This document shows, one piece after another, positions 4,114 to 56,579 of a DNA stretch of 64,000 bases. Source of the DNA: Octopus sinensis (lineage: Eukaryota); contig NW_021836130.1 of NCBI RefSeq assembly GCF_006345805.1, positions 124,001 to 188,000 on the forward strand, in the 5' to 3' direction. The notes under the pieces were generated by a model that did no database searches, had not been told where the DNA came from, and saw only the letters and a program-made list of their open reading frames with translations. Position numbers and translations under genes: made by a program. Position 1 is the stretch's first letter, and the number at the start of each line of letters is the position of its first letter.

Positions 4114-4419
4114 TGGTTTTTTCACCTCGGCTAGATTTGTAATTTCAAAACTTTTATCAACATAATTAAAATTTTGCAACAAATTTGTTTCCTCTCTTAT
4201 CAATTAGGACATATTTGCAATTTGAGTTAGAACAATCTTAAATTCAAAAAATTATTCTTTTATTTGTTTTTATAAAATTTTGAAGAGATGTGTTTTGTTT
4301 GGGTATCAATAATCATTTTCTTTCAATTTTCATTAAAACTTAAAGAAACGGTAAAATAACATAAATCGGTAAAATAACATAAAATTTAAATTTGGCTATA
4401 TTTATTTGTTTAAACACAA

Positions 4420-6278: not shown

Positions 6279-6795
6279 ATGTGCGATTCAAGTTTATTGC
6301 CTGTTTTTAATCATAGACCAGTTTCTGTTTCTATCAGACACAAAACCTCGAAGACGCCCTCGTATTTCAGTAAAAGAATCTGAAAAGGATGATGTTTATT
6401 ACTTTAAAAGATTTAAAAATAATGAAGTATATATATTAATTGATTTTCCTTAGTCTGCTAAAAAATGTCGAGAAAATAAACGAAGACTTCAAAAAATCGT
6501 AGAAAATCGATTGAATATGCTAAATTTTAAAATATCGCTTTGTCGTGAATATTTTTTATTTATTTATACTTCGGTAAAAAACAATTTAGACATTTTTGGT
6601 GAAAGCACACTTGCATTTTTTGACGAACCAGTCATGGCCAATTTGTTGTTCAACAAATCCAATGATTTAGATAATTTATATTCATCCCAAAAAAGTTTGA
6701 TCCCAGATTACTCTTTGTGGCCAGAAAATAATTTCTACAGTTATCAAGATGATGTTGATTTTTCAAATTGTGATTCAAAATTTTATGAAATTTGA
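6279..6795 (+). CDS. PAR-type bZIP transcription factor (TEF/HLF/NFIL3-like) with two micro-introns
   Basis: Removing introns 6292-6316 (25 nt) and 6427-6453 (27 nt) gives VKESEKDDVYYFKRFKNNESAKKCRENKRR, matching the PAR-bZIP basic region (KD..Y..RR.KNN.AAK.SR..RR). Confidence 0.75.
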
Positions 6796-7939: not shown

Positions 7940-8750
7940 TCATAGCGTATAATTTTCCATTAGGAATCTTTTTTGGCCATTCTAGGTCCAGTAGATTGCG
8001 TAGTTATTTTATGTGAAACGTGTCTATTTTATGTAACTCTGCCTCTATGCCACCCCAGGTACCCGAGTTATACATGAGAACTGGTTTTATATACGCGTTG
8101 TACAGCTTTAGCTTGATGTTTGTTTTTTGAAGTTTTCGATGATTCCATATCTTTTGCATTTTCTTGTACATTGCAGAGGTTAAAACTCTCATGTCCTCAC
8201 TATCACCAAGTAATGATCCCAATTTCCTTTTTTCCTCCAACTTTCATCAATATATTTCAATTCCCTTGCGATTCTTATGTGTTCAGTCTTTTCTTGATTA
8301 ACGTGCGAACACCATCTCTCAAATTCGTCCGGAATTTTCTCCAAAACAGATGCAAGTTCCTGATCATTTTTTGACGAAATGTATTCGGCAATAATCCCAG
8401 TTTTTTCTTTATTATCCAATAAATTTCTTCCTTAACTGTCGTGAATACAAATATTCTTAGGTTGCACTCCTCTCAACAGCCCGAAACATTTTCGTTCCGT
8501 ATCCCGTCCTCTCATTTTCACTGTCACTTTCATGTATTTTTCTGACATAAATTTCCTTCTTCCTTTTTTGATCTCCCTGACAACACGACTCCTTTCTTTT
8601 TTTAGCACGTTATAATTATCATGATCTGTCGTAGATTCCATATTAAGTCTTATTTTCTTCTGGTTATCACTGATAGCAGTTTTTACTTTATCTAAGATTT
8701 TCCCTTTTTTGTTAAATTCAGGACCAGAAACTATAGTGCGAACTGTATGC
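7940..8750 (-). mobile_element. Degenerate RTE-like LINE fragments
   Basis: KLGSLLG and KLKLYNAYIKPVLMYNSGTW thumb-region motifs in broken frames. Confidence 0.65.
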
Positions 8751-10697
8751 ATGTTTTTCGAGTAGTAAAAGGCTGCACTAAGTTAGGTTCCCCATCTTGT
8801 AATTATTACTTCAGGTGGTAATTCTATATTGTCAAAAAGATCTCTTCGAGATTTTTTTTGAGCAATGCAGTTTACATCGTGGCAATCAGATTATTAATAT
8901 CCCCATAGTGTGTACTCATTTTTAAGGCACAATTATGTAAAAGATGAGCAAAACAAGTAATGTGTATAACATTGTTATACATAATTGACAATGTTTCTGC
9001 AGCAGCTATCATGTATGATGCAGCGTCGATAACCAATAAAACAAAATTAAATCGTTTGACGTTAAAATCCTTTAAAGTTTCATCGATTATCTGGCAAATA
9101 ACTGAAGTATTACATATTTCAACAGAAATGCAATTTAATAGATAAATTTTCGATGGATTACAAATAGTCCCCCCAAAAACATTCACAAATTTATTATTTG
9201 AAAATTGGGTTTCATCAACAATCAAAAATATTTTCAAATTTAAAATAAGATTTTTTATTCGTTCAAAATTTAGAAGATAATTATCATATACCAATTTGCG
9301 ACAATAGGTTTCTGATGGAACAGAAAATCCCAAATCGTCGAAAAACTTAGAAAAAAGATTGTGACGAATCTTATAAAGAGGGATATTCACACCCGTCATC
9401 ATCGAAACCAATTTTAAACAAAAATCATTTGGAATTGCAATCAATTTCGATTGATGCAAGTCGTGTGTTTTACTTCTTTTTTATGCATTTCCGTCTGTCT
9501 GTGTTGTTCCACGTTAAAACTTTTTGACAAGTTTACCGAAACACAACAGAACTTGCAAGTAAGTCCCCCATTAGTACTTCTCGTAAATTCGTGCGGATAT
9601 TTATTTAATATTTTAGAGAGTTTGAATTCATTAGATTTTTTTGATTTAGGCATCTATTAATATACCTCTTTTATATAAAAACCTTTATCTCACTCAACAA
9701 AAAACCGATTATATCTCACGTTATAAAAAAATAATTCAAATATTATTATTCAAATATTTATATTTAAAAAAAAATATTAATCTAATTCATTAAAATATAC
9801 AAAAATTTGAATATGACTTTATTTTTATAATATAACTTTATTATTGAATATGACTTATATGACCTATTAATAAGTGTCGCAGTAAATAGGGATTCCAGGA
9901 AATAGCGATCCGTAGTAAATAGAGCGCATAGTATTCAAATATAAATAAATTAAGCAATTTATATGTCTATTTAGTAATAATCATTTTTATTTTTGAAAAT
10001 GTTTTTATTTTTTGCAAAAAATAATAAATTTTTATTTGAGCATGGGATATCTATCGATGTGCAATTATGAAAGGGATCAGATTATTGATTATCTAGTCAA
10101 TGCGAATTTACCGTCAACACTCAGTACCGCCAATGAAATTCGTTCCTTCAGATTCGTTCCTTTGTTCTTTTATGATTGCAATCGAAAATAGACAACTATT
10201 GCTATTTCAAAAAAAAAAGAATTTGAATTACTTTTCCATATTTTCATTTTTGTTTAAATAAAATGAAATCGAAACTAAATACACTCCATAAAGATTTAAA
10301 CGCGAAATTGACTAAATTGTTAACAAAAAGCGTCATTTAAACATTTAAAAAAATTAACAATTCAAACAATAAACGAATCTATTCTTAAGCAAATATTTTC
10401 ATTATTCCTGTACGATTTTAAAGCAGATTTTGTAGTAAGCTATTTATTAATTTATAAAATTATCAAATTAACGAAAAAATCGTCCTGCACAGTATTTGTC
10501 TTTATAGATTTCTCTATTTGGACAATATAAAATTTTATAATTATTTTACTTCGGATCGCTATTTCCTGGTATCTCTATTTACTGTAACAATAAGTGTTTA
10601 AATAGTTAAAAAATATAATTAAAATATTTAATTAATATAAACAAACACAAAATGACCTTATTTTGTGATAAGCATTATATGACTTTTGGTTGCCCTA
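8750..10697 (-). mobile_element. 3'-truncated hAT-like transposon (CGGBP1-type zinc finger plus RNase H-like transposase), frameshifted; copy 2 at about 21094-24256
   Basis: LTCKFC..VEQHRQTEMH finger, IVDET, DAASYM, HITCFAHLLH and TRWG motifs; terminal TAGGGCAACC at 10697 with ATATGAC subterminal repeats. Confidence 0.8.
9875..10589. mobile_element. Non-autonomous Ginger/TDD-type DNA transposon, 715 bp, present only in copy 1
   Basis: About 38-bp TIRs TGTCGCAGTAAATAGGGATTCCAGGAAATAGCGATCCG; TGT..ACA ends; 5-bp TSD ATAAG; empty site near 24149-24153. Confidence 0.85.
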
Positions 10698-17254: not shown

Positions 17255-17800
17255 TTAATTTATGACAATTTGAATTCCATCAAATAAAGTGATTGGGCTA
17301 ATATCGTAGCTCTCATCGATTTGGAATTCCATCAAATAAAGTGATTGGGCTAATATAGCTCTCATCGATTGGCCATCTTCTGCATTAAGCATGATATCTT
17401 CAACAGTATATTCTTCTTGAAACAGTGCAATAATTTTATTGTCATCAATGACTTTTTGTATTTGAAGCATATCTTCTTCAATCATAATTGGTCTAGCTCA
17501 TTATTGTTTGATTCAATAATTTGATATGGGGACAACTCTTCTTCAGCATAAGACTCATAAATACCTTGAATGATTCCAACTTTTTTGAAACATTACTAAT
17601 AGTTTCTTGTTTCACACTTGCCCAAGCTTCGTGAAGTAACAACATAGTGTGTCTAAGATTAACAAAAAATCTAGTGTGATTGATCAAGCGAGTTCATATA
17701 ATCAACCACTAACTTTTTTTTCTGTAATGATGCTTTAGATTTTTATTATTCCTGCATCCATTGGTTAAAGATGAGCAGTTGAGTTCTTTGGAAGCCTTAT
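17255..17800 (-). mobile_element. pogo/Tigger transposase C-terminal remnant; copy 2 at about 35473-35980
   Basis: LLHEAWASVKQETISNCFKKVGI motif; copy 1 carries an extra tandem duplication of about 52 bp at 17272-17371. Confidence 0.65.
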
Positions 17801-18544
17801 AACTTGAATGTTCCAGCTCTCCCTCGAAGCTTGAAAAGTCCTCATACTTCCCCTCTCAAACAGGAATTGGGTGGGCTCACTCTTCAGGACTCGATACCGC
17901 TTAGATAATTGCATCGAGTCCGAATACATAAAATTTTTATTACTGAGGTCTTTTCACAGTTGGGAAAATCACGATCTTACTTTTCAATAAACAAAAATTG
18001 TGTTTCACTTGAATGTCAATCACAATTGAAGTGTTCACCCAGAATTTCACTTCAGCGTCGTAAATATCGATCGAACTGAATTTGTGTTGATAAATTTAGA
18101 TTTTTCAATGCCACACATTGTTCATATGTACAGATATATGCATCCTACAACTTCGTTATGTTTTCTCATGTAGTAACTGTTCAACATTCTGACCAATTAA
18201 TCAACGGATTTCTTGGCTTTTTACAGTAATACATGTTGATTCTTTTGGATCAAAAAATTAATTTCTATCCTAAACACTATATATAGCTTTGTATTTAGGC
18301 TGCTATTTCTCGTGGGAAGCTATTGAGAAGATTCAACATCTTCATTCTCCTTACTGTTAAAAAAACAGAATACTGATTTGGAATGAGTTTGTTGCTTCTG
18401 TAATAAAGTAAGTAATGTTTTGAATAATCTTCATGCAAACTTTGATGAATTTTATAGATTAGAAAAGAAATTCTCAACCTTCAAGAATTAAATCAATAAT
18501 TAAGAGTTTCTTTGTGGCTCCGACAAAAAATATTTTTACAAGCT

Positions 18545-19065
18545 TTCTACACGCACCGGAGGCACGGGTATCAGGTCGGCGCTGGATTTCGCACTTCCGG
18601 CATATCTGTTATCGCTTTTAAGCTGCAGTCATCTCGTCCAGAAAGTCCAAACTCACACTACTATCCTTGGACACAGTATTTGACGAGGCTTGCTTGCAGT
18701 AGAAGGAAGCTGAACTTTCGATCCAGGATGATGTCTCGAGACAGAATTGTTGGGACGCAATATTGTGCAAAGCTATTGTTGATGACCTAAAGCGGGGGTT
18801 GAACCAACACTGTTTTGTCTGTTTGCTTTCTGGGCCACAACACGGGAAGGGTGCATGGCTCCACGCATTTCCATACAGTTCATTCGGTACTTTTATGGAC
18901 GACGATTGTGAGATAATTGGTGTTCAGGAGATCGGGTCCCGCATGTCTGCTATCACAGGCGACGCCCGCGAATCAAAATGGTTTTTCGAGCGGATATTCC
19001 TCGCGATAGTACGCTCTAATTCTTTCTCGATCGCGTCGGCTTCCAGCCCATTAAGCTTTTATTAA
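18545..19065 (+). mobile_element. Internally deleted CRE remnant; copy 2 at about 36720-37244
   Basis: GAWLHAFP..GTFMDD and WFFERIFLAIVRSNSFSI resemble the C-terminus of ORF 22228-23961. Confidence 0.75.
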
Positions 19066-19143
19066 TTAACTTGTAGTTATTTACTTTGTTGCTTGTGGTT
19101 CATTGATTTCTAAAAAAAAATTTTCAAATTTATAAAATAAAAA

Positions 19144-19287
19144 TGTACCGAAGTACACGAAAAAAATACGCCGTAGGACAGCCCGTATGGAACCGACCAC
19201 ACTCGAAGGCGACCCAAAGTGCAATGGATGGCCAGCGGATGGCACATTTGCCTAATTGATAACAAACATGCACGACCAGGTAAGTAC
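19144..19287 (-). ncRNA. U1: U1 snRNA, about 144 nt, divergent
   Basis: 5' GUACUUACCUGG; helix H GUCGU/ACGGC; SL1 10-bp stem with 10-nt loop UAUCAAUUAG; SL2 loop AUUGCACUUU (U1A site); SL3; U-rich Sm position; terminal UGUAC-UUCG-GUACA. Confidence 0.92.
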
Positions 19288-22146
19288 TTAGCATATGCAC
19301 ACATTAGGAAATAGATACAACTAAATTATTAAAATGTATGGATTTTTAATTAGCTTTGAGGTATATACATTTAAATAGATTATCCAATTTTTTATTGAGT
19401 TTTAACATAAATGACAAATTAAGTAATTACAAATTTATTAAATTTATAAAAAGGTGATTTTTAAACACTACTTGTGATCGCTTAAATGTTTATATTCTCC
19501 ATTCGACTGTATTTATGACTGTGTTTATGACATTTACATTAGTTATGACATTTACATTAGTTAACCATTATTATAATTTTTAATAACCTCCGTATCAACG
19601 TGCTTTTAGGTAAGTTAGTTCTTATAAAGATTTTTTTGTCATTTGGATTTATATGCAATGATAAAAATAAACTAACCTCAATGTTTAATTTGCATGGTCT
19701 CTTGGCAAATAATTTTTCGTTTTGTTTTCTGAAAAACAATACAAGTATTATTTAGTTTTTATTATGTATCGTAGATCTAGTCAAATGATGTTCAGTGAAA
19801 CTTTTGTAATTACAGAGGAATCATTAAAATTTTCATATCTGATTTCAGAATTTATAGCAAAACAACTAAAACCTCACTATTGGCGAAAACTTGATAATCC
19901 CTGCTTGTCGTATTATTGCTCGGACTGTGTTTAGGCATAATATGAACAAATAATATTGAAGATATCTTTGTCAGATAACAGTTTCTTGTCGGATTGTGGT
20001 TTGTCGGAGAATATTGAAAATAGTGTCTCATTTTTATTAAAGAAACTCACTTGACGAATCTGAGGATATTTCGGAAATGGCACATTTATTGGCATATATA
20101 CGATTTGTTTATTTTGGGAAAATTACAGAACAATTCGTATTTTATAAGCCTCTTTTAACTACTACTCGAGCAATTGATATGTTCACAATATTAAACGATT
20201 ATTTCAATATCAATAATATTTCATTTGCCAATTGTATTGGTACATGTACAGATGGAGCCCCATATGTTTGGTCGTATTAATGGACTTGTTTCATCTGTTA
20301 AATTTAAAAATAATGAGATGATTTTATCACATTGTTTTTGCATCGAGAAATATTGACTGTAAAAACATTGCCTATGAATTTAAAATCTTTCTTGGATGAT
20401 ATTATCTAAATCAGTGGTTCTCAACGGTGGACGATTCTCCCCTTAGGGATGATCCGATTTATTCACCATGGGGGCGATAATTGAAATAATGAATAAATAT
20501 GATATTTTTGTTATAATTTATTTAAATTTCTAAGCGTGATTTCTAGTTATCTTTATGGGTCGTGCTCAAAAAAGTCAGAATGTATAAAGATGAATATATT
20601 TCTCTTGGCTTTATTAAAGATCCTCAAGATCCTAATAAACCACTTTGCCTTCAATGGGGTGCAATCTTTTGAATTAAGCAAAGAAATCGTCTCGTTTGAT
20701 TGAACATTTAAAGCGAAAATATCATAATTCAATTGGAAAAAGGAAGACTTTTTTCTAGAATTAAAAAAGAATTTTGAAAATAAAAACACCTTACAGTCAA
20801 TCTTTAATAAAAATATATCTCAAAATGTCTCTGGATTATCTTTTTCATATAAAGTTGCAGAGATAATTACAAAAACTGGTTTCATTATTATTTTAATTAT
20901 AAGTACTGCTCATTCGATTGCAGAAAATGTTATCCGTCCTTGTTTAAATTTATTTATAAACGATATCTTACAAAACGATTCTTCAAATATTATGAAGACT
21001 ATTCCATTAAGCAACGATAGCAGTTTTTACTTTATCTAAGATTTTCCCTTTTTTGTTAAATTCAGGACCAGAAACTATAGTGCGAACTGTATGCATGTTT
21101 TTCGAGTAGTAAAAGGCTGCACTAAGTTAGGTTCCCCATCTTGTAATTATTACTTCAGGTGGTAATTCTATATTGTCAAAAGATCTCTTCGAGATTTTTT
21201 TTGAGCAATGCAGTTTACATCGTGGCAATCAGATTATTAATATCCCCATAGTGTGTACTCATTTTTAAGGCACAATTATGTAAAAGATGAGCAAAACAAG
21301 TGATGTGTATAACATTGTTATACATAATTGACAATGTTTCTGCAGCAGCTATCATGTATGATGCAGCGTCGATAACCAATAAAACAAAATTAATCGTTTG
21401 ACGTTAAAATCCTTTAAAGTTTCATCGATTATCTGGCAAATAACTGAAGTATTACATATTTCAACAGAAATGCAATTTAATAGATAAATTTTCGATGGAT
21501 TACAAATAGTCCCCCCAAAAACATTCACAAATTTATTATTTGAAAATTGGGTTTCATCAACAATCAAAAATATTTTCAAATTTAAAATAAGATTTTTTAT
21601 TCGTTCAAAATTTAGAAGATAATTATCATATACCAATTTGCGACAATAGGTTTCTGATGGAACAGAAAATCCCAAATCGTCGAAAAACTTAGAAAAAAGA
21701 TTGTGACGAATCTTATAAAGAGGGATATTCACACCCGTCATCATCGAACCAATTTTAAACAAAAATCATTTGGAATTGCAATCAATTTCGATTGATGCAA
21801 GTCGTGTGTTTTACTTCTTTTTTATGCATTTCCGTCTGTCTGTGTTGTTCCACGTTAAAACTTTTTGACAAGTTTACCTAAACACAACAGAACTTGCAAG
21901 TAAGTCCCCCATTAGTACTTCTCGTAAATTCGTGCGGATATTTATTTAATATTTTAGAGAGTTTGAATTCATTAGATTTTTTTGATTTAGGCATCTATTA
22001 ATATACCTCTTTTATATAAAAACCTTTATCTCACTCAACAAAAAACCGATTATATCTCACGTTATAAAAAAATAATTCAAATATTATTATTCAAATATTT
22101 ATATTTAAAAAAAAATATTAATCTAATTCATTAAAATATACAAAAA

Positions 22147-24135
22147 TTTTTTTAAACAGATAAAAAATTATATTTGTAGAAATTTGAAAAGTTCTTATAT
22201 CGAAAGAGAAGAGATTGATTTGAGAAATCAATTGAGGAAGCCCGCTGCCTGTATGGAAAGCGAGTTCCCTCGGAGTATGGCTATTCCGATCCTTTGTCTT
22301 AGCCATACTCCTTCACGAGGATCATTCTTCTTTGTGGCGAGCATTCTTCCGAGTTCGCGCAAGAACTCGGCAGTCGCTGGGCCAACTGCTCCTGATGACT
22401 CAGCCGCAACAGGGGTGAATCTGTAGCGGTCCCCGAGGAAGGAATATTTTTTGGTTTTAAGGTTTTCCGCGATTGAGGCAGCTGCTCCAGGTGTCTGAAC
22501 CGATTTAAGGAGATTCGTGCTTGAGTAAGTATCGACGCAAGTTGCGTCCCAGACCAAAGATCGTCCGGAGTTGAAAGGGAAAAGAGTCATCCCGTCAGGT
22601 CTCTTTCCATCACCTCGATCGAGACCCACTGGTTCAAGCTGTGCTGGGAAGCCTGCAGCCTTCAGAGCTCTGACGATCACGTCGTTCAGAGCGGCGTGAC
22701 GTGGTCCTCTTCCGGCGGATCTCCTGCAGGATAGCGGGTGCAATCCCTTCGCATCGACCGTTTTCCCGCAGCGGCATCGGTGCTCCTGGCAAACGTCTAG
22801 TCCAAGTCTTTGTCCGATTCCAATCCTCAAAGAATCGTCGTCCAAAAAAGTCCCGAGATTTGGGCAAGGGATTGCACCAAGCCATGCTCCGCTCCCTCCA
22901 CTTGAGGCTGACACCAGGCAAGCAAGACGATGTTGATTTGCTTCTTTTTTAAGCCCTTCTGAAATTTTGGAGCAGACAATGTTATCCCAGTTTTTTTGTT
23001 TCGTTGTGTCTTCGGGGATTTTGAGTCCTGACCCGTTCCAATCCCGGCAAGCTTCATCAAATGACTCATTCCAGCGAAGTCCAATAGTGTGACGAAGGAC
23101 TTGCCGTGTCAAATGGTTGCAGCTTGAGAGAGACGAAAGATATGCCGGGTACGCGACCTCCAGCGCCGATCTTAGACCGACACCCCCAAATCCAGAGGGA
23201 AGCTTACATTGCTTCCAACCGAGTTCGTCGAAGCGGACGTTGATTAGTGACTCAACAGTTTGTTTGAGAGATTTGTCTATCGAAAGTAGACTGTCGTAAT
23301 GTTCGTGGCAGGGTGAACTTCGCAGTAGGTATAAAAGCTTGGGTAGTCCGATGTTGTTTCTCATCAGGAAGAAGGATGTGTGAGAGTCGAGGCATGACAA
23401 TCTTTTTGCGAGGCGAGATAATTCTTCATTTTTAGAAAGTAGATGGTTCCTGAGTTCGTCTTCACTGAGTGGACATCCAAGGAAATATAGTTTATCAACT
23501 GGCACAGTCGGGATCCCGGGAAGCAGTTCGTTGAAAAACTCCTTGATAGAGAGAAAGTCAGTGTTTGAGTATGAGACATTTATTAACTCTGATTTGTTAA
23601 TATTGATGTCCAATCCCAAGTGTTTTAATGCGGGAAGTGCTTGACGTAAAGAGTTGTATGTTTCCTCGAATGATCCTCCAATTGTGGCATCGTCGAGATA
23701 CCAGAGATTTAGTTGTGCGTCAATTGATCTCACAACATCATCAATTGTCAGGGCAAATAAGAGGGGTCCGAGCGGATCTCCCTGCTGGACACCAGTTTTT
23801 GATTTAATGATTTCATCATCAAAAACCAGAGACGTATCTTCTCCGTATGACAATTTAACAAGAGGGAAAAGCATGGGAGCCCTCTTCCAACACGTTTCCA
23901 TAATGGAGTCTCTTCTGAGAGAATTGAATGCATGGTTATGTCCAATTTGATTCCAATGCATTCGTTTGCAGTATTCTTCTGTGTAAAGAAACGCCTTGCT
24001 GCATGAACCGCTGCCTCACATCCGTTCTGGATACTAACACCCATTTGTTCTGGGAAGAACTCCGCACCGAGTGGGCGGCTCACGAGGGTCGAAGCAATCT
24101 TCGCTGCGAGTCTTCTGAAATAGTTTCCGACCGCA
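22147..24135 (-). mobile_element. 5'-truncated CRE-clade retrotransposon (RT, CCHC knuckle, restriction-like endonuclease), only in copy 2
   Basis: AVGNYFRRL, GVQQGDPLGP, WYLDD, CRCG..HPLSC, RH, RPDG and WDAT motifs; one frameshift near 23950; short A-tail at 22147-22153. Confidence 0.92.
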
Positions 24136-26697
24136 ATATGACCTATTAATAAGTGTTTAAATAGTTAAAAAATATAATTAAAATATTTAATTAATATAAA
24201 CAAACACAAAATGACCTTATTTTGTGATAAGCATTATATGACTTTTGGTTGCCCTAGTTATCAGATAAAAGTTCAATTTCGTTATCGAATACTCCTTTGA
24301 ATCCGGACGGTTTTTTCCCAAGCACATACATACTTTCTTTATTTCTTCAGCCACTGAATCCCAAACCACTGCAAGAGGATTTTTCATATTTACGTTCATA
24401 ATTTCTTTCTTAATTGCCATACAATAATTTTCCGAGTCTTCTCACATAAAAATAATTGTCCCACCGTAAACGGTTAGTACTGATTCACTTTATACTTTTT
24501 GAAAAACTTATTTAAAAACAGTTATGTTATAGAAAATAAAATTTCATTAAAAATAAAAAAGTCTCCCAAGAATAATTTGACCCACTGAATGTGGAATAAA
24601 AAATTATATAAACAAAGTCTAATTCTAATGATATCACAAAAATAATGAATTTCAATGATCATCGTATTTTACCTTCGAAGTATTCTTTCTTGGATGAATA
24701 TTAGGCTACATCGTGCGCAGTGGATTCTAAACAAATCTTAACAAAGAATGGAAATTTAAAATCGAATAAAGTAAAATATTACTTGATTGTTAGTAACTTG
24801 ATAAAAGATGTATAAAATTACCTTAGATTTTCATAAGAGTAGTCTATATATAAAAATAAAGTAATATATTTCTTAGGTTAATTTTTCAGTCAATTTTTAA
24901 AATTTTACGGTCAATTAAATTGACTTTTTAATAATAATGGTTCTGTGAACGTGCTTTTAATAATTAAAAGCACAAAACATGGTTTTAGCGGCTCAAAAAT
25001 TCGAAAACTTTAGATATTATAGTTAAAAGAGTCAATTATTAAATTATTTTAAAAAATACTAATGGATCCTTTTTTCAAAAAAACAATACTAGTCACATCT
25101 TTATTCAACAGATGCGCAAAAGAATAGGTAAGAATAAAAATACTCTTACTTCGTCTTTTAGTTAATGGTTATTACTTTATTATTTTAGTAAATTGATTTT
25201 ATTAAAAACTGATAGTTTATCTAGCTGACATTTTTCATAAAGTGAATGAAGTAAATATTAGCTTGCAAGGAAACAAAATTAGTTTAATAAATGTACAAAG
25301 AATTATCATGCCTTTTATTGAAAAATTACATATCTATGAAAACAACATTAAGAAAATGATGAGAAGGTGTGCAGTGGTCGGGAATTGCACGTTTTTAGTG
25401 GTGCATTATTATATCATTGTTCTATCATTGTATTTCATTCTTTCATCCATTCATTTTTTCATTAAACTGTATTTAATTGTATCAATCTATTCTTTTTTCA
25501 TTTGATTGTATTCCATTGTATCAATCTATTGTACCCTTTTCTCACTCCATGTCTCACTGTCTATCTTGTATTCATGTCAACGCCTGCATGAGACCGTCCC
25601 TTGCAAAAGTTGCCTCTTCTCCAACAAAAGGAAGAACGGTTTCAGATGCGCTATGCCATCAGTACTTCCATTTAAACTGCCTTAAAATCTCGAAAGAGGC
25701 CGCCATAAAGATTCCAAACTTGCTGTATCCATCATGCCTCTCATGCTCAAGTCACTCTCTCAAGCCTTCAATGGGGTGCGAAGGAACACCCTATGCGGCC
25801 AACGCTTCTCTGCCCAACCATTCCTCGCCAATCATTCCATCTGTTAAAGATTTCCTCTTTCCGGTTGCCCGGAACAAAAGAATTCGCAGAATTCCAGTCA
25901 TTTTCGCCGCTGATTCCTTATCAACTGCCAGGGACAAATTATATCCAACTGTCAGCAAAATTTTTGTTATAGAAGAATTTCTGATATTCTTGGTGTTTAA
26001 AATGAGGCTAAACAGCGACATATTTCAGAAAGACGTGACTTTGTTATCGCGAAGATGAGGTCCCTGGTCGAGTGCATCGGGATCACGTGAGTTTTGTTTA
26101 ATCTCTATCGTAATCTCGGCGGTTAAATAAAATAAAGACAATTCCCCATGTCATACTTCAAATGCAACAATGAAATGTTCATCCGCATATAAAACTAATT
26201 TATTCGATTGGCCAACACAATCTCCGGACATGAATCCAATTGAAAACATTTGGGCTAAAATAAAATATGAATTATTGAAGGAAAAAATTGAAAATTGAGA
26301 ACAAAATAACGAAGAACAAAAGGATAAAATACTCAAAATTTAAAATCAAAATCCAATGGAGTACATTAAAATTGATAAATTCGATGAAAAATCGTAGTTT
26401 AGAGTTATTCAAACCAAAAGGAAAACATATACCGTACTAATATGTTTTGACATTTTTCGGAATTTTTTGTCATATAAATTGTTTTTTTTGCTGTATTCAC
26501 AACATTTTAAAAAGTTAATAATAAAAATAACGATTCATCAAATGTCCGGATTTTTTTTATCGAGAGGGGAATATTGAAAAACAAAATATTTCAAAAGTGG
26601 AGCAACTAACAACAATGTCTTCGTTTAATTATAAAGCTGATGACAAATCAGATATTTGACAATGAATGTTGTCCTAGCACAATACAAAACATTGCTA

Positions 26698-28218
26698 CAG
26701 TACCGCTCAAATGTTTCGGACCACCCTATTTTTCTCAATTTCCAAGTCAATCCTAAATTATTTTTATACGGTTCTTTAGAGAAACTTATTAGATAAGCTT
26801 AAATACATTTATTCTATTCTAAAATTTTCTTTAAATATTTTTGTTTGGCGCCAATTGAATATAATTGATTTTTGACTCGATCATATGTTCCGGACCAGTT
26901 GCAATCATATGTTTCGAACCAGTTAAATCTCTTTAAATTTAAATAATTTTTGATTCAATTAAAAACAAAAGACTAATAAATAACAAATGCCGCGTGTTTC
27001 ACTGGTTGATCGGGTCGCTATCATCACTTTTTTTAAAGATGGAGCTTCACAAAGAGAAATTGCCGAAAAATTAAAAATATCCAAAACTGCTGTTCAAAGA
27101 ACAATTTCCAGATATTCATCCGTTGGACTATATTCCGACAGACCCAAATCTGGTCGACCGAGATTGTTATCCCCAAGATCTGAACGCAAATTAGTGAGAA
27201 TTTCGAAAGCAGACCCCACAAAAACGGCAAATCAAATTAAATTTGATATGAAATTAAATTCTATTGTAAGCACAAATACAATTAAAAGATGCCTACAAAG
27301 AAATAATTTGAATGGGCGAAAGCAATGCCCAAAACCAAGTCTTTCCATATGCCATAAAAAGGCTAGAAAAAATTGGTGCATTGAGAAATTAACTTGGAGC
27401 CAAAATGATTGGGGTAAAATTATTTTTAGTGATGAATGCAAAATAAATTTGCATTCAAACACAAAAAATTATGTTAGAAGGCCACCAAACTCTAGATTTG
27501 ACTAAAAATATTGTTTAAAAACACGAAAATTTTCTCCTAGCATTATGGTCTGGGGAGCTATTGCTGCAAATGGATGGAGAAACATTGTCTTATGCATTAA
27601 AAATGTTGATTCCGCAGAGTATCAGAGAATTATAAATGTTGGACTCGAAAATTTTTATGATGAGACCATGTATCTCCAGCAAGACGGCGCTCCTTCCCAT
27701 CGGTCCATGTCGACAATGAATTTTTTTCAAAGGAAACAAATAAAAATCTTAGAAACTTGGCCGAGCCAGTCACCCGAACTGAATATTATTGAAAATATGT
27801 GGTCGGTACTAAAACAAAAACTTTATGATCTGGAACCAAAAGATCTTCCAGAGCTCTGGAATTTGACCAAAAAAATTTGGTACGAGATTGATAATTCGTA
27901 CATTGAAAAATTATACAATTCACTTCCAGAGCGAATAAATGCTGTTATAACGAACAACGGAGGAAATATTAATTATTAACTTTTTATAAGTTTAATAAAT
28001 TTTCGGTTTTTTTTAAACTGGTCCGGAACATATGATCGAGTATAAAATCGATAATTTTAAAATTGCGCCAAACATGAATATCTGTCCAAGTTTTTAAAAT
28101 AGAATAAATGTGTTTAAGCTTATCTAATAAGTTTCTCTAAAGAACCGTATAAAAATAATTTAGGATTGACTTGGAAATTGAGAAAAATAGGGTGGTCCGA
28201 AACATTTGAGCGGTACTG
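26698..28218 (+). mobile_element. Full-length Tc1-family transposon (1521 bp) with IR/DR ends; transposase 26987-27979 has one in-frame TAA
   Basis: TA TSD (empty site attgcTAgaat at about 13130); TIR CAGTACCGCTCAAATGTTTCGGACCACC; GRPR, FSDE, VWG, QQDGAP and SPELNIIE motifs. Confidence 0.97.
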
Positions 28219-30024
28219 TAGAATAATAACACTAAGCAATGGATACTGTTACGAGAAAACACCATTAATAACTGATAGTACCCCGAATCAATCAAAATAT
28301 AACATACAGTGAATATATGAATATATGTAAAGCACAAAACAAACTGGAAATTGTACAGAACCAGTGCTTACGGATTTTAATGAAACGTGATAAAATGACG
28401 ACTACTTCGGAACTGAGAAAAGTGCTATACATTAAAAAATTAATGGACCATCTTACAGAAAGACAGCACATCTTCTTAACAATGGCAAGATATACCGGAG
28501 GTCCCCTTGAAGAGGAGTATCTTGCTTATGAAAAGTGTGTTAAAAAATTTTTAAAAACCATCCCCCTTTTGGACGTTGATTAAGAATTCGAGACAAGGAA
28601 ATGATAAAAGGAGACGCACTGACACCAAGATCACTTAATTAGACAACTACTATTCCTCTTCTGTGTTCCCGGGCAATAATATACGAATCAATATTTAGTA
28701 AAATAATGGCATGAGTCACAGCATATATATTTAACAGCGTGCTTATAATGGTTCTTGTGGTGTCGAAAACTCTTAATTTTGAAAATAATTTAATGGATTG
28801 GCCACAATACAACAATCCACTCATTCCCAATGGGACCCCATTTAAGCAATAGCATTCTTTAATTTTGAAACACATTCGATCGACAGCGATCATAAATATT
28901 ACAAGGAAACGAATTAAAAAATAGGCTTAAATTGTAAAAAATAAAATTATCGCACAAGAATCAAACGTATAAGTATACTGTTCAATAATTTAAAAATAAT
29001 TAACATAAACTCGATAAAATACAATGGATTCAGGGTCAAGTAGAGATGCAAGCAATTTGAAAATTTATCTTTAGGAGCATTAAAAGATGGATTAGTTCCA
29101 ATTGTGCACAAATGAATCTTTTGAAAAATATAAAGATTTGTATCAAAAAATCGTTTATAAATATGATAAAGAAAAACGTGAAATCATTAAAAAAACACAC
29201 ATTAAAATTTTCATTCAGATTAGGAAATTAAAATCGCGAAATACCACAAAAATGATGAAATTTCAGATAACTTAATCATTAAAAGAAATTAAATCACAAA
29301 TATTCCTTCTGAATCCAATTTAATAAAAAAAATAAAGCAGAACTAAATAATAGTAACAGTACAACAAAGTAAATCAAAAGCATGTCATAATTTATTAGGT
29401 TTTCCATTAAAAATTAAAATAATTTAACAATGAAAAATAGTTTTATAAATATTATTAAAATGATGACAAGAGACAATCGTTATGTTCTGAAAAAGTAGGT
29501 CACTCGCGTATGATGAAATTTTTTTGTATAAAACATTATTTTGTCAGCCAATCATTAAAATTATTCGTTCAGTTCCATAAATATTAGTTTATTTGTTCAA
29601 ATTTCAGATTTGGCGCTTTTTGATGAACAGATAAATCGAAAAGATCTGGAGAGATTCCACTGACATTTAAATTGTGTTTTAATAAAAATAAAGTTTATTT
29701 TTTATTAATATTTGTTTAATTATCTTAATTTTTAATGAAAAACCTAATAAATTACGACACATGTGATCACGTGTATGTTTTACTTTGTTGTATTCTTTTT
29801 ATTATTGTTCTTTACTTTATTTTTAATGTAATTGGATTCAGAAGGAATATTTGTTTATGTAGTTTCTTTTAATTATTAAATTATCTGAAATTTCATCATT
29901 TTGTGATATTTTTTCATTTTATTCCATTAATCTGTCTCTTCTACATATTTTGAACTTTCTAAACACAATTATCTTTATTCATTCAATTCTCTTTTTTTTT
30001 GTTTCATATTTTCCGATTATATTA

Positions 30025-31821
30025 TGTCACAGTCCGAATAAAATACACGCCGAATAATTACATTCTTTAATTTTACTGAAATTAAAAATTTACACAACAA
30101 AATGTTTAATTATTATTAAAAATATGATTTTTAATGTAAAATTCATTAACCTTTTTTACTAATTTATATAAACAAAACCAACCACACTCAATTTACGCAG
30201 TTAACTTATACGTTTGAATATTGTTATTCCATTTTAGGTTATCCTAATAAAATTTTCATATAAAATTTATCGTTAATTTAAATAAAAAATTATTTTTATT
30301 ATGGATTTATGAAAATTAATCAATTTTATCTAATCGAGAAATATGAATTCCGTGTAACCGCTCACCGTCCTCCTTTTCGATAACATAGAGATCATTTCTT
30401 CGCTCGACAACAATATACTTATTAACATCAAGTCCATCGTACAGCGGATACTGCCGAACATTGGCATCGTTGTCCTGTCTAAAAATTAATTTGACGCTTG
30501 AGACCTTAAAAGCACAGTCGTTCCGACATTGATATTTTCTTCGTCGTATCTCCATTTTCTTTTTTCAATCATTTTTTCGCCAGCAATAATTAAGTTTTCT
30601 AATGCACTTTCTCGTGCCTCTGATAATCCAGTTGAATCATAGGCTAAAAGTTGCTCCATTCCCCCTTCATCAATCCTTCCAGGATTTTCAACACCCATGA
30701 ATATATAAAAAGGGATTTTTTTGTCGAAGAATGAATGCTGTTATTGTAATCATACACGATGTCCTTTATGCATTCGCGATATCGTCCAAAACAATTTTGA
30801 GAAGAACTTGCCGACGATATCCAGCGTTTTATGCTTTGATTAAATCTACAAATCGATTTTAAATCATTAACCTTTCGACTTGCCCTTGTACCCAAGGAGC
30901 ACGAGGCCTCCCACGTACATGTTTTATACCATATTTCGTACATAGAGCATCCATTTGCGAATTGCAAAATTCCCTTCCATTATCAGTGTGTAGAATAAGC
31001 GGAGGCCCGACATAATAAAAAATTCTTTGGAATAAATCTGCGATTTCTTCAGAAGATTTGGTCACCGACAGTTCAAGCATTACATATTTGGAAAAAGAAT
31101 CCACAATTACCAAAATCTATTTATTAACATTAAATTCATACCCAGCTAAAGCCATCATTCAACGCCGAATATCTTCTGAGGTCAATTAAATCCGCAATGT
31201 ATCTGTCCCTACATCTCCTTGCAATGATTGGCGTAATCGGAGGCTTCGTAGACAATAATTTTTTCGACTAAGAATATTTACTAAAAGGAGTTATTACCTG
31301 ACAGAAAGCACAATTCGAAATCACCTTAGAGATTTCTTCTCTATTCAATCCATAATAGAGATTTCTTAATTTCGAAAAAAGCCGGTCTCTCCCAAAGTGG
31401 TTATAGTTATGTTCCGCCTAAATTTTATTTATTAAGTTGGACCTCAACGCACTTAAGCTTTAATTCGATTTCATCTTCACAGAAAAAACGCAATTTAAGC
31501 CCATTTTTTCGAAAATATGTTTTTCCATTTTCAAAATGGAAATTCTTTCCCAATTTTGTGAGCCTGTATCGCTCATGCCGCTCGATTGACGATGTATCAA
31601 AGTTGGAGTCTTTCATTTCTTTGATTTTGTCCAGTGTTTCCTTAAATAATCTCACTACACGCATGTTTCACGCTTTTTTAAATAAAAAATAATAATGTGA
31701 TTCTACTAAAATAAATAATCAATTATTGATTTTTTTCATACTAATTTTTAGATTTCTAATTTTTTCAGCCATTTGTGACAAGTGTAGATTATTCGGCGTG
31801 TATTTTATTCGGACTGTCACA
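30025..31821 (-). mobile_element. Full-length Ginger-type DNA transposon (1797 bp), only in copy 2
   Basis: TIR TGT(C/G)ACAGTCCGAATAAAATACACGCCGAATAAT; 5-bp TSD TATTA; empty site at about 14933-14937. Confidence 0.93.
30316..31664 (-). CDS. Six-exon retroviral-type integrase/transposase (HHCC plus DD35E), about 405 aa once one missing base is restored
   Basis: GT-AG introns 31418-31442, 31268-31297, 31117-31141, 30846-30871 and 30479-30504 join H..NHFGRDR, CAFC, YIADLID, HTDNGREF and QGQVERFN. Confidence 0.88.
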
Positions 31822-31852
31822 TATTATGTTCATTATCTTTATTTTTACTAAT

Positions 31853-33153
31853 CAGGGTTGTTAAAAATCATGATTTTTTTCAAAAAAATCAAAAAAATCT
31901 GATTTTTTTGATTTAATCACGATTTTTTTGATTTAAATCAGATTTTTTTGAATTAAATGATCTTTATTTCAAAACGACCCTTTCCACCTGGCTTATCAGA
32001 GAACCTCTCTCTTTGTACATAAACACTGAAAAACGGCCACGCAGAACGATCTATCGTAGTTCCTTATGTCCACCGGGATCACTTAACTAGTTTGCATTAC
32101 GCTTTCTTTCTTTGTGGTCTTCGGGTTAATAAATAAAAAAATATTCAAAGCGAACTAAAATAAAAAACAAAAACAATGGAAATCGTTTTTATTTATTTAA
32201 AAGCTTGTAAATGGAAACAAGTTTGGCTGCTTTTTCGATCCCCAGCCTATTGCGTACATTTGAATGTAGAAATCCGAATGTTGAAAAGATTCTTTCTATT
32301 CCACCTGTCGAAGCAACTGCTCCAAGAATTTTTTTGCATAGTGAAATTACTTGTGAAGGTAACTGGTATGAATTCGACTCCCACCAAGCTATAGGTGATA
32401 CTTTACTCAATAAATTCGGAGCAAACATGTATTGTTTAAATGGATCAGCTTTTGCTCTGAAATTAATCAGAGTCGGAAGTGCATATTCATAATTTTGAGC
32501 ACAATAACTCAATGCAATGTCAATCTCAACATTTGAAAGAGATTTCCCACTACATGTCGGGTCGATCAAATTCGCAAGTAAGTGGAAAGGTGTTAATGCT
32601 TGTTTTGCTCGAATTCTCACTTTTCCTAAAATATTCGTACATCCATTGTCAATATATGTCTGTTCAAGTTCTTTCCAAATTTCTACAGCATGACTAATCG
32701 TGGTAGAATCATTCTGAATTTTATCTAAAGCGACAGCAATTGGTTTAATAAGCATCAGATATTCTTCAACGCGTCGTTTTAGGGAAATATTAGATGAAGT
32801 CGTCGTAGTTACGAAATTGATTAATGAATGGTCCTTCATCCTTGGAGGAAATTCGCTTTCAGGTCTCGGCATATTTTCAGGGATATCAATATTACTTCGA
32901 CATAATAAATGATGCTGCCTCATCCGAGATACAAGACCTTGTATGTCCTTCCCACAATTACGACATCTGGCACGGCTTCCGGTCTTTCCAGGAATAATAC
33001 GTTTATCAAAATAAGCCCACAAAGAATCACGCTTTCTTCCAGACATTTAAAAAAATTTAAATGATTTTTTTGATTTTTTGATTTTTTTTAATGATTTAAA
33101 TCATTGATTTTTATTGTTGATTAAAATCAAATGATTTAAATCTAACAACCCTG
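31853..33153 (-). mobile_element. Internally deleted hAT (1301 bp) with an open 285-aa ORF at 32189-33046, only in copy 2
   Basis: TIR CAGGGTTGTTA; 8-bp TSD TTACTAAT; BED finger (LWAYF..CRNC..H) fused to hATC (WW..ASTGGIERIFS..RNRL). Confidence 0.93.
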
Positions 33154-36100: not shown

Positions 36101-37321
36101 CATAAAATTTTTATTACTGAGGTCTTTTCACAGTTGGGAAAATCACGATCTTACTTTTCAATAAACAAAAATTGTGTTTCACTTGAATGTCAATCACAAT
36201 TGAAGTGTTCACCCAGAATTTCACTTCAGCGTCGTAAATATCGATCGAACTGAATTTGTGTTGATAAATTTAGATTTTTCAATGCCACACATTGTTCATA
36301 TGTACAGATATATGCATCCTACAACTTCGTTATGTTTTCTCATGTAGTAACTGTTCAACATTCTGACCAATTAATCAACGGATTTCTTGGCTTTTTTACA
36401 GTAATTACATGTTGATTCTTTTGGATCAAAAAATTAATTTCTATCCTAAACACTATATATAGCTTTGTATTTAGGCTGCTATTTCTCGTGGGAAGCTATT
36501 GAGAAGATTCAACATCTTCATTCTCCTTACTGTTAAAAAAACAGAATACTGATTTGGAATGAGTTTTGTTTGCTTCTGTAATAAAGTAAGTAATGTTTTG
36601 AATAATCTTCATGCAAACTTTGATGAATTTTTATAGATTAGAAAAGAAATTCTCAACCTTCAAGAATTAAATCAATAATTAAGAGTTTCTTTGTGGCTCC
36701 GACAAAAAATATTTTTACAAGCTTTCTACACGCACCGGAGGCACGGGTATCAGGTCGGCGCTGGATTTCGCACTTCCGGCATATCTGTTATCGCTTTTAA
36801 GCTGCAGTCATCTCGTCCAGAAAGTCCAAACTCACACTACTATCCTTGGACACAGTATTTGACGAGGCTTGCTTGCAGTAGAAGGAAGCTGAACTTTCGA
36901 TCCAGGATGATGTCTCGAGACAGAATTGTTGGGACGCAATATTGTGCAAAGCTATTGTTGATGACCTAAAGCGGGGGTTGAACCAACACTGTTTTGTCTG
37001 TTTGCTTTCTGGGCCACAACACGGGAAGGGTGCATGGCTCCACGCATTTCCATACAGTTCATTCGGTACTTTTATGGACGACGATTGTGAGATAATTGGT
37101 GTTCAGGAGATCGGGTCCCGCATGTCTGCTATCACAGGCGACGCCCGCGAATCAAAATGGTTTTTCGAGCGGATATTCCTCGCGATAGTACGCTCTAATT
37201 CTTTCTCGATCGCGTCGGCTTCCCGCCCATTAAGCTTTTATTAATTAACTTGTAGTTATTTACTTTGTTGCTTGTGGTTCATTGATTTCTAAAAAAAATT
37301 TTCAAATTTATAAAATAAAAA

Positions 37322-37465
37322 TGTACCGAAGTACACGAAAAAAATACGCCGTAGGACAGCCCGTATGGAACCGACCACACTCGAAGGCGACCCAAAGTGC
37401 AATGGATGGCCAGCGGATGGCACATTTGCCTAATTGATAACAAACATGCACGACCAGGTAAGTAC
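37322..37465 (-). ncRNA. U1: U1 snRNA, second copy
   Basis: Appears identical to 19144-19287, inside duplication copy 2. Confidence 0.92.
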
Positions 37466-37899
37466 TTAGCATATGCACACATTAGGAAATAGATACAACT
37501 AAATTATTAAAATGTATGGATTTTTAATTAGCTTTGAGGTATATACATTTAAATAGATTATCCAATTTTTTATTGAGTTTTAACATAAATGACAAATTAA
37601 GTAATTACAAATTTATTAAATTTATAAAAAGGTGATTTTTAAACACTACTTGTGATCGCTTAAATGTTTATATTCTCCATTCGACTGTATTTATGACTGT
37701 GTTTATGACATTTACATTAGTTATGACATTTACATTAGTTAACCATTATTTATTAATTTTTTAATAACCTCCGTATCAACGTGCTTTTAGGTAAGTTAGT
37801 TCTTATAAAGATTTTTTTTGTCATTTGGATTTATATGCAATGATAAAAATAAACTAACCTCAATGTTTAATTTGCATGGTCTTCTTGGCAAATAATTTT

Positions 37900-46571: not shown

Positions 46572-46828
46572 CCACACACCAACAGGAATTTTAAATTTGT
46601 AATTTTATATGAATTAGTATTATTTAATTTATGACAATTTTAGTTAACATTATTTTTAACTAATAGAATTTAAATTTTCAGAAAAAAGATTTAAAATATT
46701 CTATTTCAATATTCTATAGTGTAGAAATAATAACAGTTCAGAATTAAATTTAGTAATTTTACTATAATTTAATTATACTATAATTATATTATTTTTATAT
46801 TAATCAACGGTCAACCTAATATAATAAA

Positions 46829-53929: not shown

Positions 53930-55496
53930 ATGGTCGACGCATTCCGTGAATATCTGCGATTTCCAACAGTCCAACCAGATCCTGATTATGGTGACATTCT
54001 ATTAAATAAAAAGCATTTTTAGGTCCTGCGGTTAAATTTCTCTCTGATTTAGCCCTTGGAATAGGGCTTCAGCCTACCGTTTTGGAATTTTATCCAACAA
54101 AGCTGATTCTTGTAATAAAGTGGCAAGGGAACGACCCTGAAGCGGAATCAATTTTACTGAATTCTCACATGGACGTTGTTCCAGTGTACAGAGTATTTAT
54201 GTGTAAATTCAAATATTTTAAGGAGAAGTGGACATTTGATCCATTTGGTGCAGAAATGGACAATAATGGGAACATCTATGCACGTGGAAGTCAGGTTTAA
54301 ATATATTATAAATGTGGTTAGGATATGAAATGTGTCACAATTCAGTATTTTTTAATTTACTGACGTCAGATATTTAGAAGCGATCAGAAAACTCATCAAA
54401 GAAGGTTATGTTCCGCGCCGAACTATATACGTCAGCGTAGTACCAGGTTTATAATTTTTATTTTATTGTTATCAGATGAGGAAATCGGTGGACTGACCGG
54501 AATGGCGACGTTTGTGAAGAGTGAGTATTTTAAATCTCTCAACATTGGTTTTGCCCTTGATGAAGGTGTTTTATTATGTCACTAAGAGTTGTAGGAATTG
54601 CATCCCCAAATGCAACGTTTTCAGTTTTTTATGGCGAAAGGACTGTAATGCGTTTGATTTTTTTGACTTGAATGATTTATAGCATTCAAATTGACGTGTC
54701 ATGGAAACCCAGGCCATGGGTCACTTTTTTTGGAGAACACTGCAGGAGAGAAGATGGTAATAAATTTTAGGTTTTAAATTATAGGCAAACTGTCTCGCTG
54801 CAGTACAATCTTTCCGCAATAATGAAAGACGAAAACTTGAAGAGTTGTTATGAAACTGTTAATTTTAGAAATCCCGGGATGAAACTGGGAGATGTAACAA
54901 CTGTCAATTTAACTGTTCTTGAAGGCGGCGTACAGACAAACGTTATCCCGGCCACTCTTTCTGCCAGTTTTTTTTCTTATTTAAGCTATTTGAAGCATTT
55001 GATTTACGATTACCTTCAACCACAAGTTTTACTGAAATTTGTGATCAGGTTTTTCCTGAAGCTGAAAAAAATGGGATTTTTATCAATAAAATTTATGTTT
55101 TATTTGAATTTTTGTAATATTTGACAGGATAGTGAACAAATTCAACCTTCGTCCCTTGATTCCCCGTTTTGTAAATCGTTTTTTTCTGCTATTGATGAAC
55201 TGTGAGTTTTAATCAATAATTGAGTTAAATTATATTTTAATTTTAAATTTTGATAAAAAACTTTAGTGAACTGGAAACACAGGTCATGATTTTTCCGGCA
55301 GGAACTGATGCAAGATATCTTCGTGGAGTACATTATTAAATCTAACAATACATAGACTGGACTTCCAGTTCTCAACTTTTCCCCGATGAATAACACCCCT
55401 GTGCTTCCTCATGACCATGATGAGTATCTAAATGTTGATACGTTTTTGCGAGGAATTAATATTTATCAGATCATTCTCCAAAAAATATCAACTTAA
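53930..55496 (+). CDS. ACY1: Aminoacylase-1 (M20 family), about 12 micro-introns
   Basis: [61 protein letters not shown] and HDHDEYL; introns include 53991-54022, 54193-54222 and 54295-54321. Confidence 0.95.
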
Positions 55497-56579
55497 TCTA
55501 ATCTAATTCTAATTTGATTATCTCGATTTTTCTAACGATAATTTAACATTTAATTTTTCTAATATTACCCACAAATGATTAATTAATGATGAAAAGAATT
55601 TGACCATTATCATTTTTCTATTTAATGTATTTTTATTTAAGAAAAAAAATTTCTACAGATATTTAGTTCATTTGAAAAATACGTCTATGAGTCAGCAAAT
55701 GTAGTTTTTTATTACAAAAATTGGTTTTTATTTAATCTATTTTATCATTAACAAAATGTAGATTAACAAATTGCCAATTAAATCATTAATAACTCTTAGA
55801 ATAATGGTCGGAAAATTAATTATCAATTGTATTAAAATTGTATAATGATTGACTATTAGATTATTTCAAATAATTTCTTTTTGGGATAAATCATAAAATC
55901 AAAAACAAAATTAGATGCTAGCTAGGTAAGTAGCTAAGAGAATAATCGAGAGCCTAAGAGTCAGCTTAACAACCCGGGGTGCGTATTTCCGTTGAGCACA
56001 GCGACCGAGAGTTGTCAAAAAAGCCAGCTTGTTCAAGTAACTTAATAGAAATCATTTAAAAATTAAGAAACTTCATAATTCTGATAAAATTGGTACACCC
56101 GTTTATCACAGTCAGATTGAAATTATTGATTTTAAAGTATATAATGCTTATCTATCATACCATTGTTAAATGTATGAAAAGGAAATAAACGACAGTTTAT
56201 GTAGAATTAACGTGAGGCGACGAGTCCTGTGAATGGGAATCTCCTACCTGCCGGATCTCAGCGTGGCGTAATGTGGTTTACCATGTTAGTTGGAACTTCA
56301 ATTGGATATGGAAACGCTCAGAGGGCACCTAATCCCTACCGAAAAAGAACTTGTAGAAATCTGACCCCAAGGGAAATCTTTTTCACAGGTCGATCGAACC
56401 TTTCCGAAGGATCTCCGTCTCTTGCGAAGTGCATCGAGGATCATGGGAATTATAATTAACAAGTTCACCCTGGTCCTTTGGTCATTAATAAATTTCTCAA
56501 AAAATTATAATTGAAACATATTGAAATTATTTATGTAGATCATGCTCACTAAATAAGTTTTTTCAATTCCTTTTGAGCT

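Follow-up and report, generated by a model that had tools for sequence, protein, structure and literature searches.

On the minus strand of the window (the whole 64,000-nt stretch of DNA analysed here) lies a short U1 snRNA gene, which is likely the working U1 of the major spliceosome of a likely dicyemid. Its SL4 is reduced to a hairpin of 6 bp in which the GCG/CGC stem is missing, and we consider it probable that this happened through loss of the bridge between SL4 and the UBL of SF3A1. The parts of the gene and its flanks are as follows.

19143..19287, minus strand: U1 snRNA gene, short subfamily A, predicted RNA of 143-145 nt
19277..19285, minus strand: canonical 5' splice-site pairing motif ACUUACCUG, invariant in 15 of the 15 full copies
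19276-19272 paired with 19174-19170, minus strand: helix H, from the alignment fold
19242..19271, minus strand: SL1, 11 bp, with loop UAUCAAUUAG at 19261-19252, from the alignment fold
19200..19241, minus strand: SL2, with the U1A-binding loop AUUGCAC at 19225-19219; both partners change in 4 of its 14 pairs
19176..19198, minus strand: SL3, 8 pairs, none varying, from the alignment fold
19158..19167, minus strand: predicted Sm site AUUUUUUUCG, from its sequence and its position in the Rfam alignment
19143..19158, minus strand: SL4, GUGUAC-UUCG-GUACAU, 6 bp, -5.0 kcal/mol, without internal loop and without GCG/CGC
19133..19142, minus strand: U-rich tract directly after SL4, also found behind the parasite's U2 genes
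19426..19438, minus strand: upstream motif ATAAATTTGTAAT at about -150, which aligns with small changes in 7 of the 7 upstream regions compared
37321..37465, minus strand: the U1 gene once more, within a segmental duplication of 99% identity (17319-21017 / 35486-39208)

The initial annotation described this locus as a shortened, divergent U1 of a tiny-intron organism, and all the U1 features it listed are present on the minus strand between 19287 and 19143. The motif ACUUACCUG, the SL2 loop AUUGCAC, the SL1 loop UAUCAAUUAG and the Sm position AUUUUUUUCG read exactly as it gave them, and a local scan with the Rfam U1 model (RF00003) matched 19142-19287 over the whole model with 52.6 bits and an E-value of 4.1e-12. 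The score is below the Rfam gathering score of 69.5, as are those of 12 other short-type copies (41.7-62.6 bits; E-values of the short-type copies 3e-7 to 3e-13), and neither the window nor a further 140 kb of its contig had a match at gathering level; the gathering score is a curator's threshold rather than a biological feature. The predicted 5' end is G19287 or A19285. The RNA may begin two bases further in, since the first two bases are not conserved between the two subfamilies of copies, but the parasite's U2 also starts with GU. Counted from the A of ACUUACC, the short U1 has 143 nt up to the last base of SL4, while the host U1, counted likewise as far as its SL4 stem reaches, has 160 nt (164 nt in all); 6 bases are absent before the Sm site and about 13 after it. 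The Sm position between SL3 and SL4 consists of A followed by 6-8 U in all 11 aligned copies, and it is not a strict fit to PuA(U)5-6Pu; neither is that of the host. Judged by sequence, the U-rich tract behind SL4 is a possible 3'-end signal and the AT-rich motif ATAAATTTGTAAT a possible promoter element, the DNA around it being AT-rich too.

A DNA search gave 17 matches on 13 small contigs, comprising 15 full and 2 degenerate copies. The full copies, all on small contigs, belong to subfamily A (9) and subfamily B (6). Eleven of the 15 were aligned; three others were identical to aligned ones and one had many indels. The consensus fold of the 11 copies is the full U1 cloverleaf, in which helix H and SL1-3 form the four-way junction, together with a 6-bp SL4 that is paired in every copy. 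It was found that 99% of the 484 alignment cells were paired, compared with 33-48% in the slid controls, and that both sides changed in 8 of the 44 pairs, with just 1 of the 6 pairs of SL4 doing so. None of 500 shuffles reached the paired fraction or the covariation score, and 5 of 500 reached the pair count; the further pair types were not above shuffles, 179 of 500 matching their count. Since the fold was taken from the same alignment of related copies on which the pairs were counted, these statistics support the structure without proving it. As a single sequence the window U1 folds in a modestly unusual way (z -2.39, with 1 of 200 shuffles equally good), and the full junction is absent from this fold. 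The four-way junction of the complete U1 fold that had been described from the window comes from the alignment fold, and its length of about 144 nt is predicted. Identity between subfamilies A and B is 82-87% in the RNA, 56-59% in the upstream flank and 46% in the downstream flank. The window copy is a few bases off the other subfamily-A copies and keeps all pairs and the upstream motif. We regard the short U1 as a real and probably functional variant, likely from a dicyemid.

The 2.7-Gb assembly (G000) contains two organisms, the octopus on the chromosomes and a tiny-intron animal on small contigs. A genome search with Rfam gave at least 41 U1 hits over the cut-off (42 of about 31,000 candidates were scored), 40 of them on C1-C28 and 1 on C9998. 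The chromosomal U1 is canonical with 164 nt, and its sequence and promoter are unlike those of the short U1. The initial annotation had proposed a genome-wide U1 check, with an expressed canonical U1 elsewhere as the result that would speak against it; the canonical U1 belongs to the host, and the short U1 is thus not refuted. Because the Rfam search missed the short type, the whole assembly was scanned for exact matches to two U1 motifs, a scan that is blind to any U1 altered in either motif. Its 52 hits were 15 of the short type, 32 of the host type and 5 due to chance. As no third type of U1 was among them, the short U1 is likely the only U1 of the parasite. The U1-like matches on C9998 and C10352 are shortened host-type copies in microsatellite-rich DNA, and a match on C9584 was dismissed as chance. 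In the host U1 (L016-L035), the Sm position is an unusual AUUUCUA and there are at least six SL1 loop variants.

We do not favour a reading of subfamilies A and B as two species, as their contigs share repeats at 92% or more; it is also weakened by U1-70K, U1C and SF3A3, for each of which there was one parasite-type match. Runs X3-X6 contain near-identical and also diverged versions of window genes, which leaves room for two species.

Second copies of U1-70K, U1C, SF3A3, CHERP, U2SURP, actin and RPS13 are found on the small contigs, most of them with tiny introns. Repeats at 92% or more are shared with the window's contig by the U1-70K contig (336 bases), the RPS13 contig C7758 (538 bases) and C6303 (1,672 bases). 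None was shared by 144,354 sampled bases of host chromosomes, and C9194, C10384 and C11053 likewise had no repeats in common with it. The small-contig RPS13 has the same three introns as that of Dicyema japonicum, for which we used a row of a paper supplement; about 117 of 151 residues are identical (about 77%, hand count), and they share the 22-residue stretch YGVPNISRCASNKVLRILKKNG, at which the Thelohanellus kitauei row differs. The median introns reported for dicyemids are 24 and 27 nt, and the median in the parasite is 27 nt. A cephalopod host also fits Dicyemida, the host protein, a chromosomal SF3A1, being named Octopus by the sources. From these comparisons, the window DNA likely comes from a dicyemid that is not D. 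japonicum. The stop codons are standard, the genes are rich in introns and RPS13 matches as described, for which reasons an origin from a ciliate or a microsporidian was rejected. Actin exons, used as queries, gave no identification of the organism; the sources label an actin without introns on C11053 as Octopus, and at least four divergent actin genes (L102, L107, L108 and L109) on parasite-type contigs have 24-34-nt introns at shared positions. Many unplaced small contigs (C6094-C13070 sampled, including the window's C12601), some of them 0.5-0.96 Mb long, come from the likely dicyemid.

As for the surroundings of the gene, the segmental duplication that carries it exceeds 10 kb with 97-99.6% identity (10589-21017 matches 24148-39208 in pieces), and a further piece, 8672-9808, matches 21016-22149, so that duplicated DNA lies within 8672-39208. 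The duplication may be real or may reflect an uncollapsed assembly. Transposon content is dense (371-1264, 4383-5537, 22228-24015, 26984-27979, 32189-33046 and 58833-59861), comprising four ORFs for reverse transcriptase, two ORFs with a Tc1-type transposase, and fragments of hAT/BED and DUF659. The window also contains a gene with a CID domain (RPRD-like) whose introns are 24-27 nt long, other genes with several introns that run contigs cover, and two ORFs that look like bZIP but have no Pfam hit; their coordinates, as one list, are 42313-43100, 44000-46500, 46828-47379 and 6454-6795. A tandem repeat with units of about 21 nt occupies 50226-50982, with an inverted copy at 50820-50982.

Introns of 25-33 nt had been noted for this DNA from the outset, and the following gene bears this out.

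53930..55497, plus strand: aminoacylase-1-like gene, 385 aa, 13 introns, of which 12 are 25-32 nt long and one is 65 nt

Its introns were set by hand with evidence from the run contigs; an ab initio model was rejected, having mis-set several of them. The contigs of runs X3-X6, which behave as RNA, omit 24, 27 and 29 nt in window genes and skip GT..AG stretches of 31, 31 and 65 nt. None of the runs that contain the window is recorded as RNA, which is neutral as to expression. When 40 introns of 8 genes were pooled, leaving out doubtful aligner calls and the introns of C6303, the median was 27 nt and the range 21-65 nt, with 38 of the 40 not longer than 33 nt. The 5' splice sites of the parasite pair poorly with U1 beyond GT (mean 4.75 of 9 matches), in line with the published reduction of those of D. 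japonicum to 'GTa', and the U1 5' end is canonical despite these weak sites. The U2 snRNA genes of the parasite are full length, with 190 nt at 154 bits (L232:1484-1673; also L233, L234, L235, L241 and L242). Their first base is G instead of A, the U-rich tract seen behind the U1 genes follows them too, and a human-type U2 pattern missed them because of an extra A. The genes for U1-70K, U1C, SF3A3 and U2 are on the same kind of small contigs as the short U1.

The altered SL1 loop, which had been proposed as another adaptation of the spliceosome to short introns, reduces to one change. In the human U1 snRNP, G28 is reported to flip out between R172 and Y112, while A29 pairs with A36. The loop of the short U1 keeps A29, U30, C31, A32, A36 and G37, and its fixed change is G28U, where U28 could wobble with G37. 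Positions 33-35 vary between the subfamilies and likewise among the six host loop variants, so that the difference is essentially G28U. The initial annotation had also suggested inspecting U1-70K and SF3A1 in this genome. In the parasite U1-70K (numbered via a fish orthologue), 10 of the 11 named contact residues are kept, and the changes are L175V and a one-residue gap in loop 3. With its protein partner nearly unchanged, we read the SL1 change as tolerated drift. For SF3A1, only pieces of the C-terminal half were found, and the gene on C6303 stops where a UBL would be expected.

SL4 has changed to a greater extent. The SL4 of the window was first taken for a 5-bp UUCG hairpin; the short hairpin is confirmed, but it has 6 bp, including a closing G-U pair (19158-19143), and the UUCG tetraloop occurs in only 4 of the 11 aligned copies. 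According to the reported human data, the SF3A1 UBL reads the GCG/CGC stem of SL4, binding drops strongly after A-U swaps, changes to the loop have little effect in the assays, and the G-C pairs of the lower stem matter in cells. Both the GCG/CGC upper stem and a lower stem with many G-C pairs are present in the host U1 and absent in all 11 short copies. The window SL4 has only 2 G-C pairs, and the folding energy is -4.2 to -7.2 kcal/mol in five copies compared with -13.7 in the host. The parasite SL4 likely no longer grips SF3A1.

On the protein side, the host SF3A1 ends with UBL-ERGGRKK; its gene is intronless and encodes 803 aa (L036:76-2487, C3). The searches gave only two pieces of a parasite-type SF3A1; each belongs to the C-terminal half, and in the exon they share they are 51% identical. 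The better conserved one, on C9194 (L081:3990-4462), runs into the end of its contig before reaching the UBL region. The other, an SF3A1-derived gene on C6303 (L082:7847-8521), was read by hand as an ORF of about 185 codons in six exons. It stops after the basic motif PPSKRIRYD, where the UBL would start, as trematode SF3A1 does, and it is without the N-half and an internal segment; it may be a degenerate SF3A1 paralogue. On parasite-type contigs we detected neither a UBL exon nor a KERGGRK tail; the host gene and polyubiquitin were all that the UBL searches returned. The pattern KERGGRK matched 15 times, compared with 21 times in the reversed control. The three matches on small contigs lie in host-like repetitive DNA, and the match that was aligned with the UBL was not homologous to it. 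Searches for the N-half with 2 Pfam families, 3 protein queries and 1 motif returned only the host gene and other SURP proteins. Since this expected half was also not found, the failure to find the UBL is weak evidence, and UBL loss in the parasite SF3A1 is suggested by the sequences at hand. The SURP-bearing N-half went unfound although SF3A3 was found, for which an assembly gap, divergence or a split gene are possible explanations. In the protein collections searched there was no dicyemid U1-70K or SF3A1, the best identities being 67% and 65%.

These observations can be placed in one scheme. Once the bridge from SL4 to the SF3A1 UBL was lost, selection on SL4 would have relaxed and SL4 would have shrunk to 6 bp. 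The short U1 would be made by Pol II, capped, and loaded with Sm, U1-70K, U1A and U1C, and would pair through ACUUACCUG with the weak 5' splice sites; SL4 would now mainly be a hairpin protecting the 3' end, and U1 would contact U2 via other links or through the closeness of the sites. With short introns the bridge may become dispensable, although they do not seem to be the necessary or specific cause of its loss. The full-length U2 of the parasite, taken together with the comparison across species, indicates that trimming is specific to the 3' end of U1, which is easier to reconcile with the loss of a single contact than with a general reaction to intron size. The short SL4 is likely due to loss of the bridge and relaxed selection. 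A wider and more tentative version, which we would put somewhat below an even chance, is that dicyemids dismantled the U1-SL4/SF3A1-UBL bridge, on which human spliceosomes depend, losing the reading surface of SL4 and the UBL and perhaps splitting SF3A1, and that the same paired loss took place in flatworms.

The initial annotation had suggested a different possible cause, namely that selection reshaped SL4 and SL1 specifically because introns this short leave no room for normal bridging between U1 and U2. Short U1 and tiny introns do occur together here, and the parasite SL4 is more A-U/G-U-rich than planarian ones. However, planarian introns are not known to be ultra-short, and planarian U1s also have a short SL4. 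A short SL4 in relatives with normal introns had been named as a finding that would count against this cause, and planarians supply it in part, with an SL4 of 6-7 bp without GCG/CGC. As similar trimming is seen in flatworms, the tiny introns of the parasite are probably not the cause. The nucleomorph of Bigelowiella, with introns of 18-21 nt, is on the side of the intron explanation, its reported U1 of 102 nt having a highly shortened SL IV (PMC6461891). On the other hand, trematodes lack the UBL, yet the introns of Schistosoma mansoni are long (reported median 1,591 nt), and T. kitauei, with a reported median intron of 22 nt, keeps the UBL and the RGG tail in its SF3A1. The snRNAs of Stentor are described, in the text of PMC9505925 only, as similar to those of other species. 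The full-length U2 and the conserved contacts of U1-70K also oppose this explanation, which we consider quite unlikely. Among the reasons considered for the trimming, loss of the SL4-UBL bridge has the best support and adaptation to tiny introns has less.

It is unlikely, too, that the bridge persists in altered form, with a real SF3A1 that still has its UBL and a small hairpin whose G-C pairs suffice. In its favour are the C9194 piece, which runs off the contig before the UBL region, the searches that miss the N-half as well, the complete pairing of SL4 in 11 of 11 copies, and reports that the short or loop-less SL4 of Schizosaccharomyces pombe and Caenorhabditis elegans complements in human cells. 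Nevertheless, the window SL4 has lost GCG/CGC and its tetraloop is free to vary, and the searches for U1-70K, U1C, CHERP, U2SURP and SF3A3 found a parasite-type gene in each of the five cases while those for the UBL did not. We think it very improbable that this U1 locus is either a silent copy spread by segmental duplication among transposons or an octopus U1 variant. It does sit in a 99%-identical duplication amid retroelement and transposase fragments, and degenerate copies exist, but the close agreement with the other subfamily-A copies in bases, pairs and upstream motif speaks against this, as do the tiny-intron genes of the contig, which has no repeats in common with the sampled host chromosomes.

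A 2026 paper states that the splicing of animal introns below 30 nt is an open question, and there U2 and U2AF were checked and U1 was not. We found no description of a dicyemid U1 or of UBL loss in flatworm SF3A1 in the literature covered, most subscription journals and bioRxiv supplements being outside it. The short dicyemid-type U1 is apparently undescribed so far, though supplements of earlier snRNA surveys could contain such sequences. Our analysis supplies concrete parts, namely two U1 subfamilies, U2, U1-70K, U1C and SF3A3, and makes the joint loss of SL4 and UBL cheaply checkable. If the paired loss in dicyemids and flatworms is true, they would form a natural set of animal spliceosomes that pair the 5' splice site and the branch site without this contact, one of which removes introns of 21-33 nt. 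The many parasite contigs in the octopus assembly can mislead annotation.

When compared with known systems, the short SL4 has precedents, and its link to intron length is contradicted by three comparisons. Like the Rfam RF00003, host and human U1 (164 nt), the short U1 has the 5' motif, the four-way junction, the U1A loop, a U-rich Sm position and a terminal hairpin; unlike the host U1, it is about 20 nt shorter, carries G28U and a weaker SL4, and is 52% identical. The expressed U1s of the planarian Schmidtea mediterranea, 150-159 nt long (PMC6312358, supplementary table), resemble it in their 6-7-bp SL4 without internal loop or GCG/CGC. At the base, the planarian SL4 stems mostly consist of many G-C pairs, and G28 is kept in every variant listed, whereas the parasite SL4 is shorter and A-U/G-U-rich.

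For SF3A1, the UBL was present in 23 of 38 representatives of at least 290 aa, and many of the other 15 look like fragments. Four without the UBL end at the same basic motif, among them those of Paragonimus and Schistosoma haematobium, and three more Paragonimus proteins have similar lengths. Trematode SF3A1 (P0165, P0246, P0167 and P0231) lacks the C-terminal UBL and the myxozoan Thelohanellus (P0220) keeps it. The trematode proteins resemble the C6303 gene in ending with a basic motif of the KRPR type at the expected start of the UBL, but they are full length with SURP domains, while the C6303 gene is a C-terminal part only.

The comparisons also draw on PMC13644364, PMC6543705, PMC2222250 and PMC8833184, and further on PMC4233244, PMC4383343, PMC10158995, PMC6795144 and bioRxiv 2022.06.08.495308. 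Among fungi, S. pombe also has a shorter SL4 stem, 19% identical to the human one, but it is G-C-rich and still works in human cells, and Saccharomyces cerevisiae is reported to have a U1 without the terminal SL4 and a Prp21 without UBL. In the nucleomorphs of Bigelowiella natans and Guillardia theta and in Giardia, SL IV is described as reduced or missing (PMC6461891). These U1s resemble the short U1 in being shortened in reduced genomes and in keeping the 5' motif despite weak splice sites. They are, however, non-animal, 102-118 nt long and reported as without U1A and/or U1-70K sites, whereas the parasite keeps both its U1A site and its U1-70K gene.
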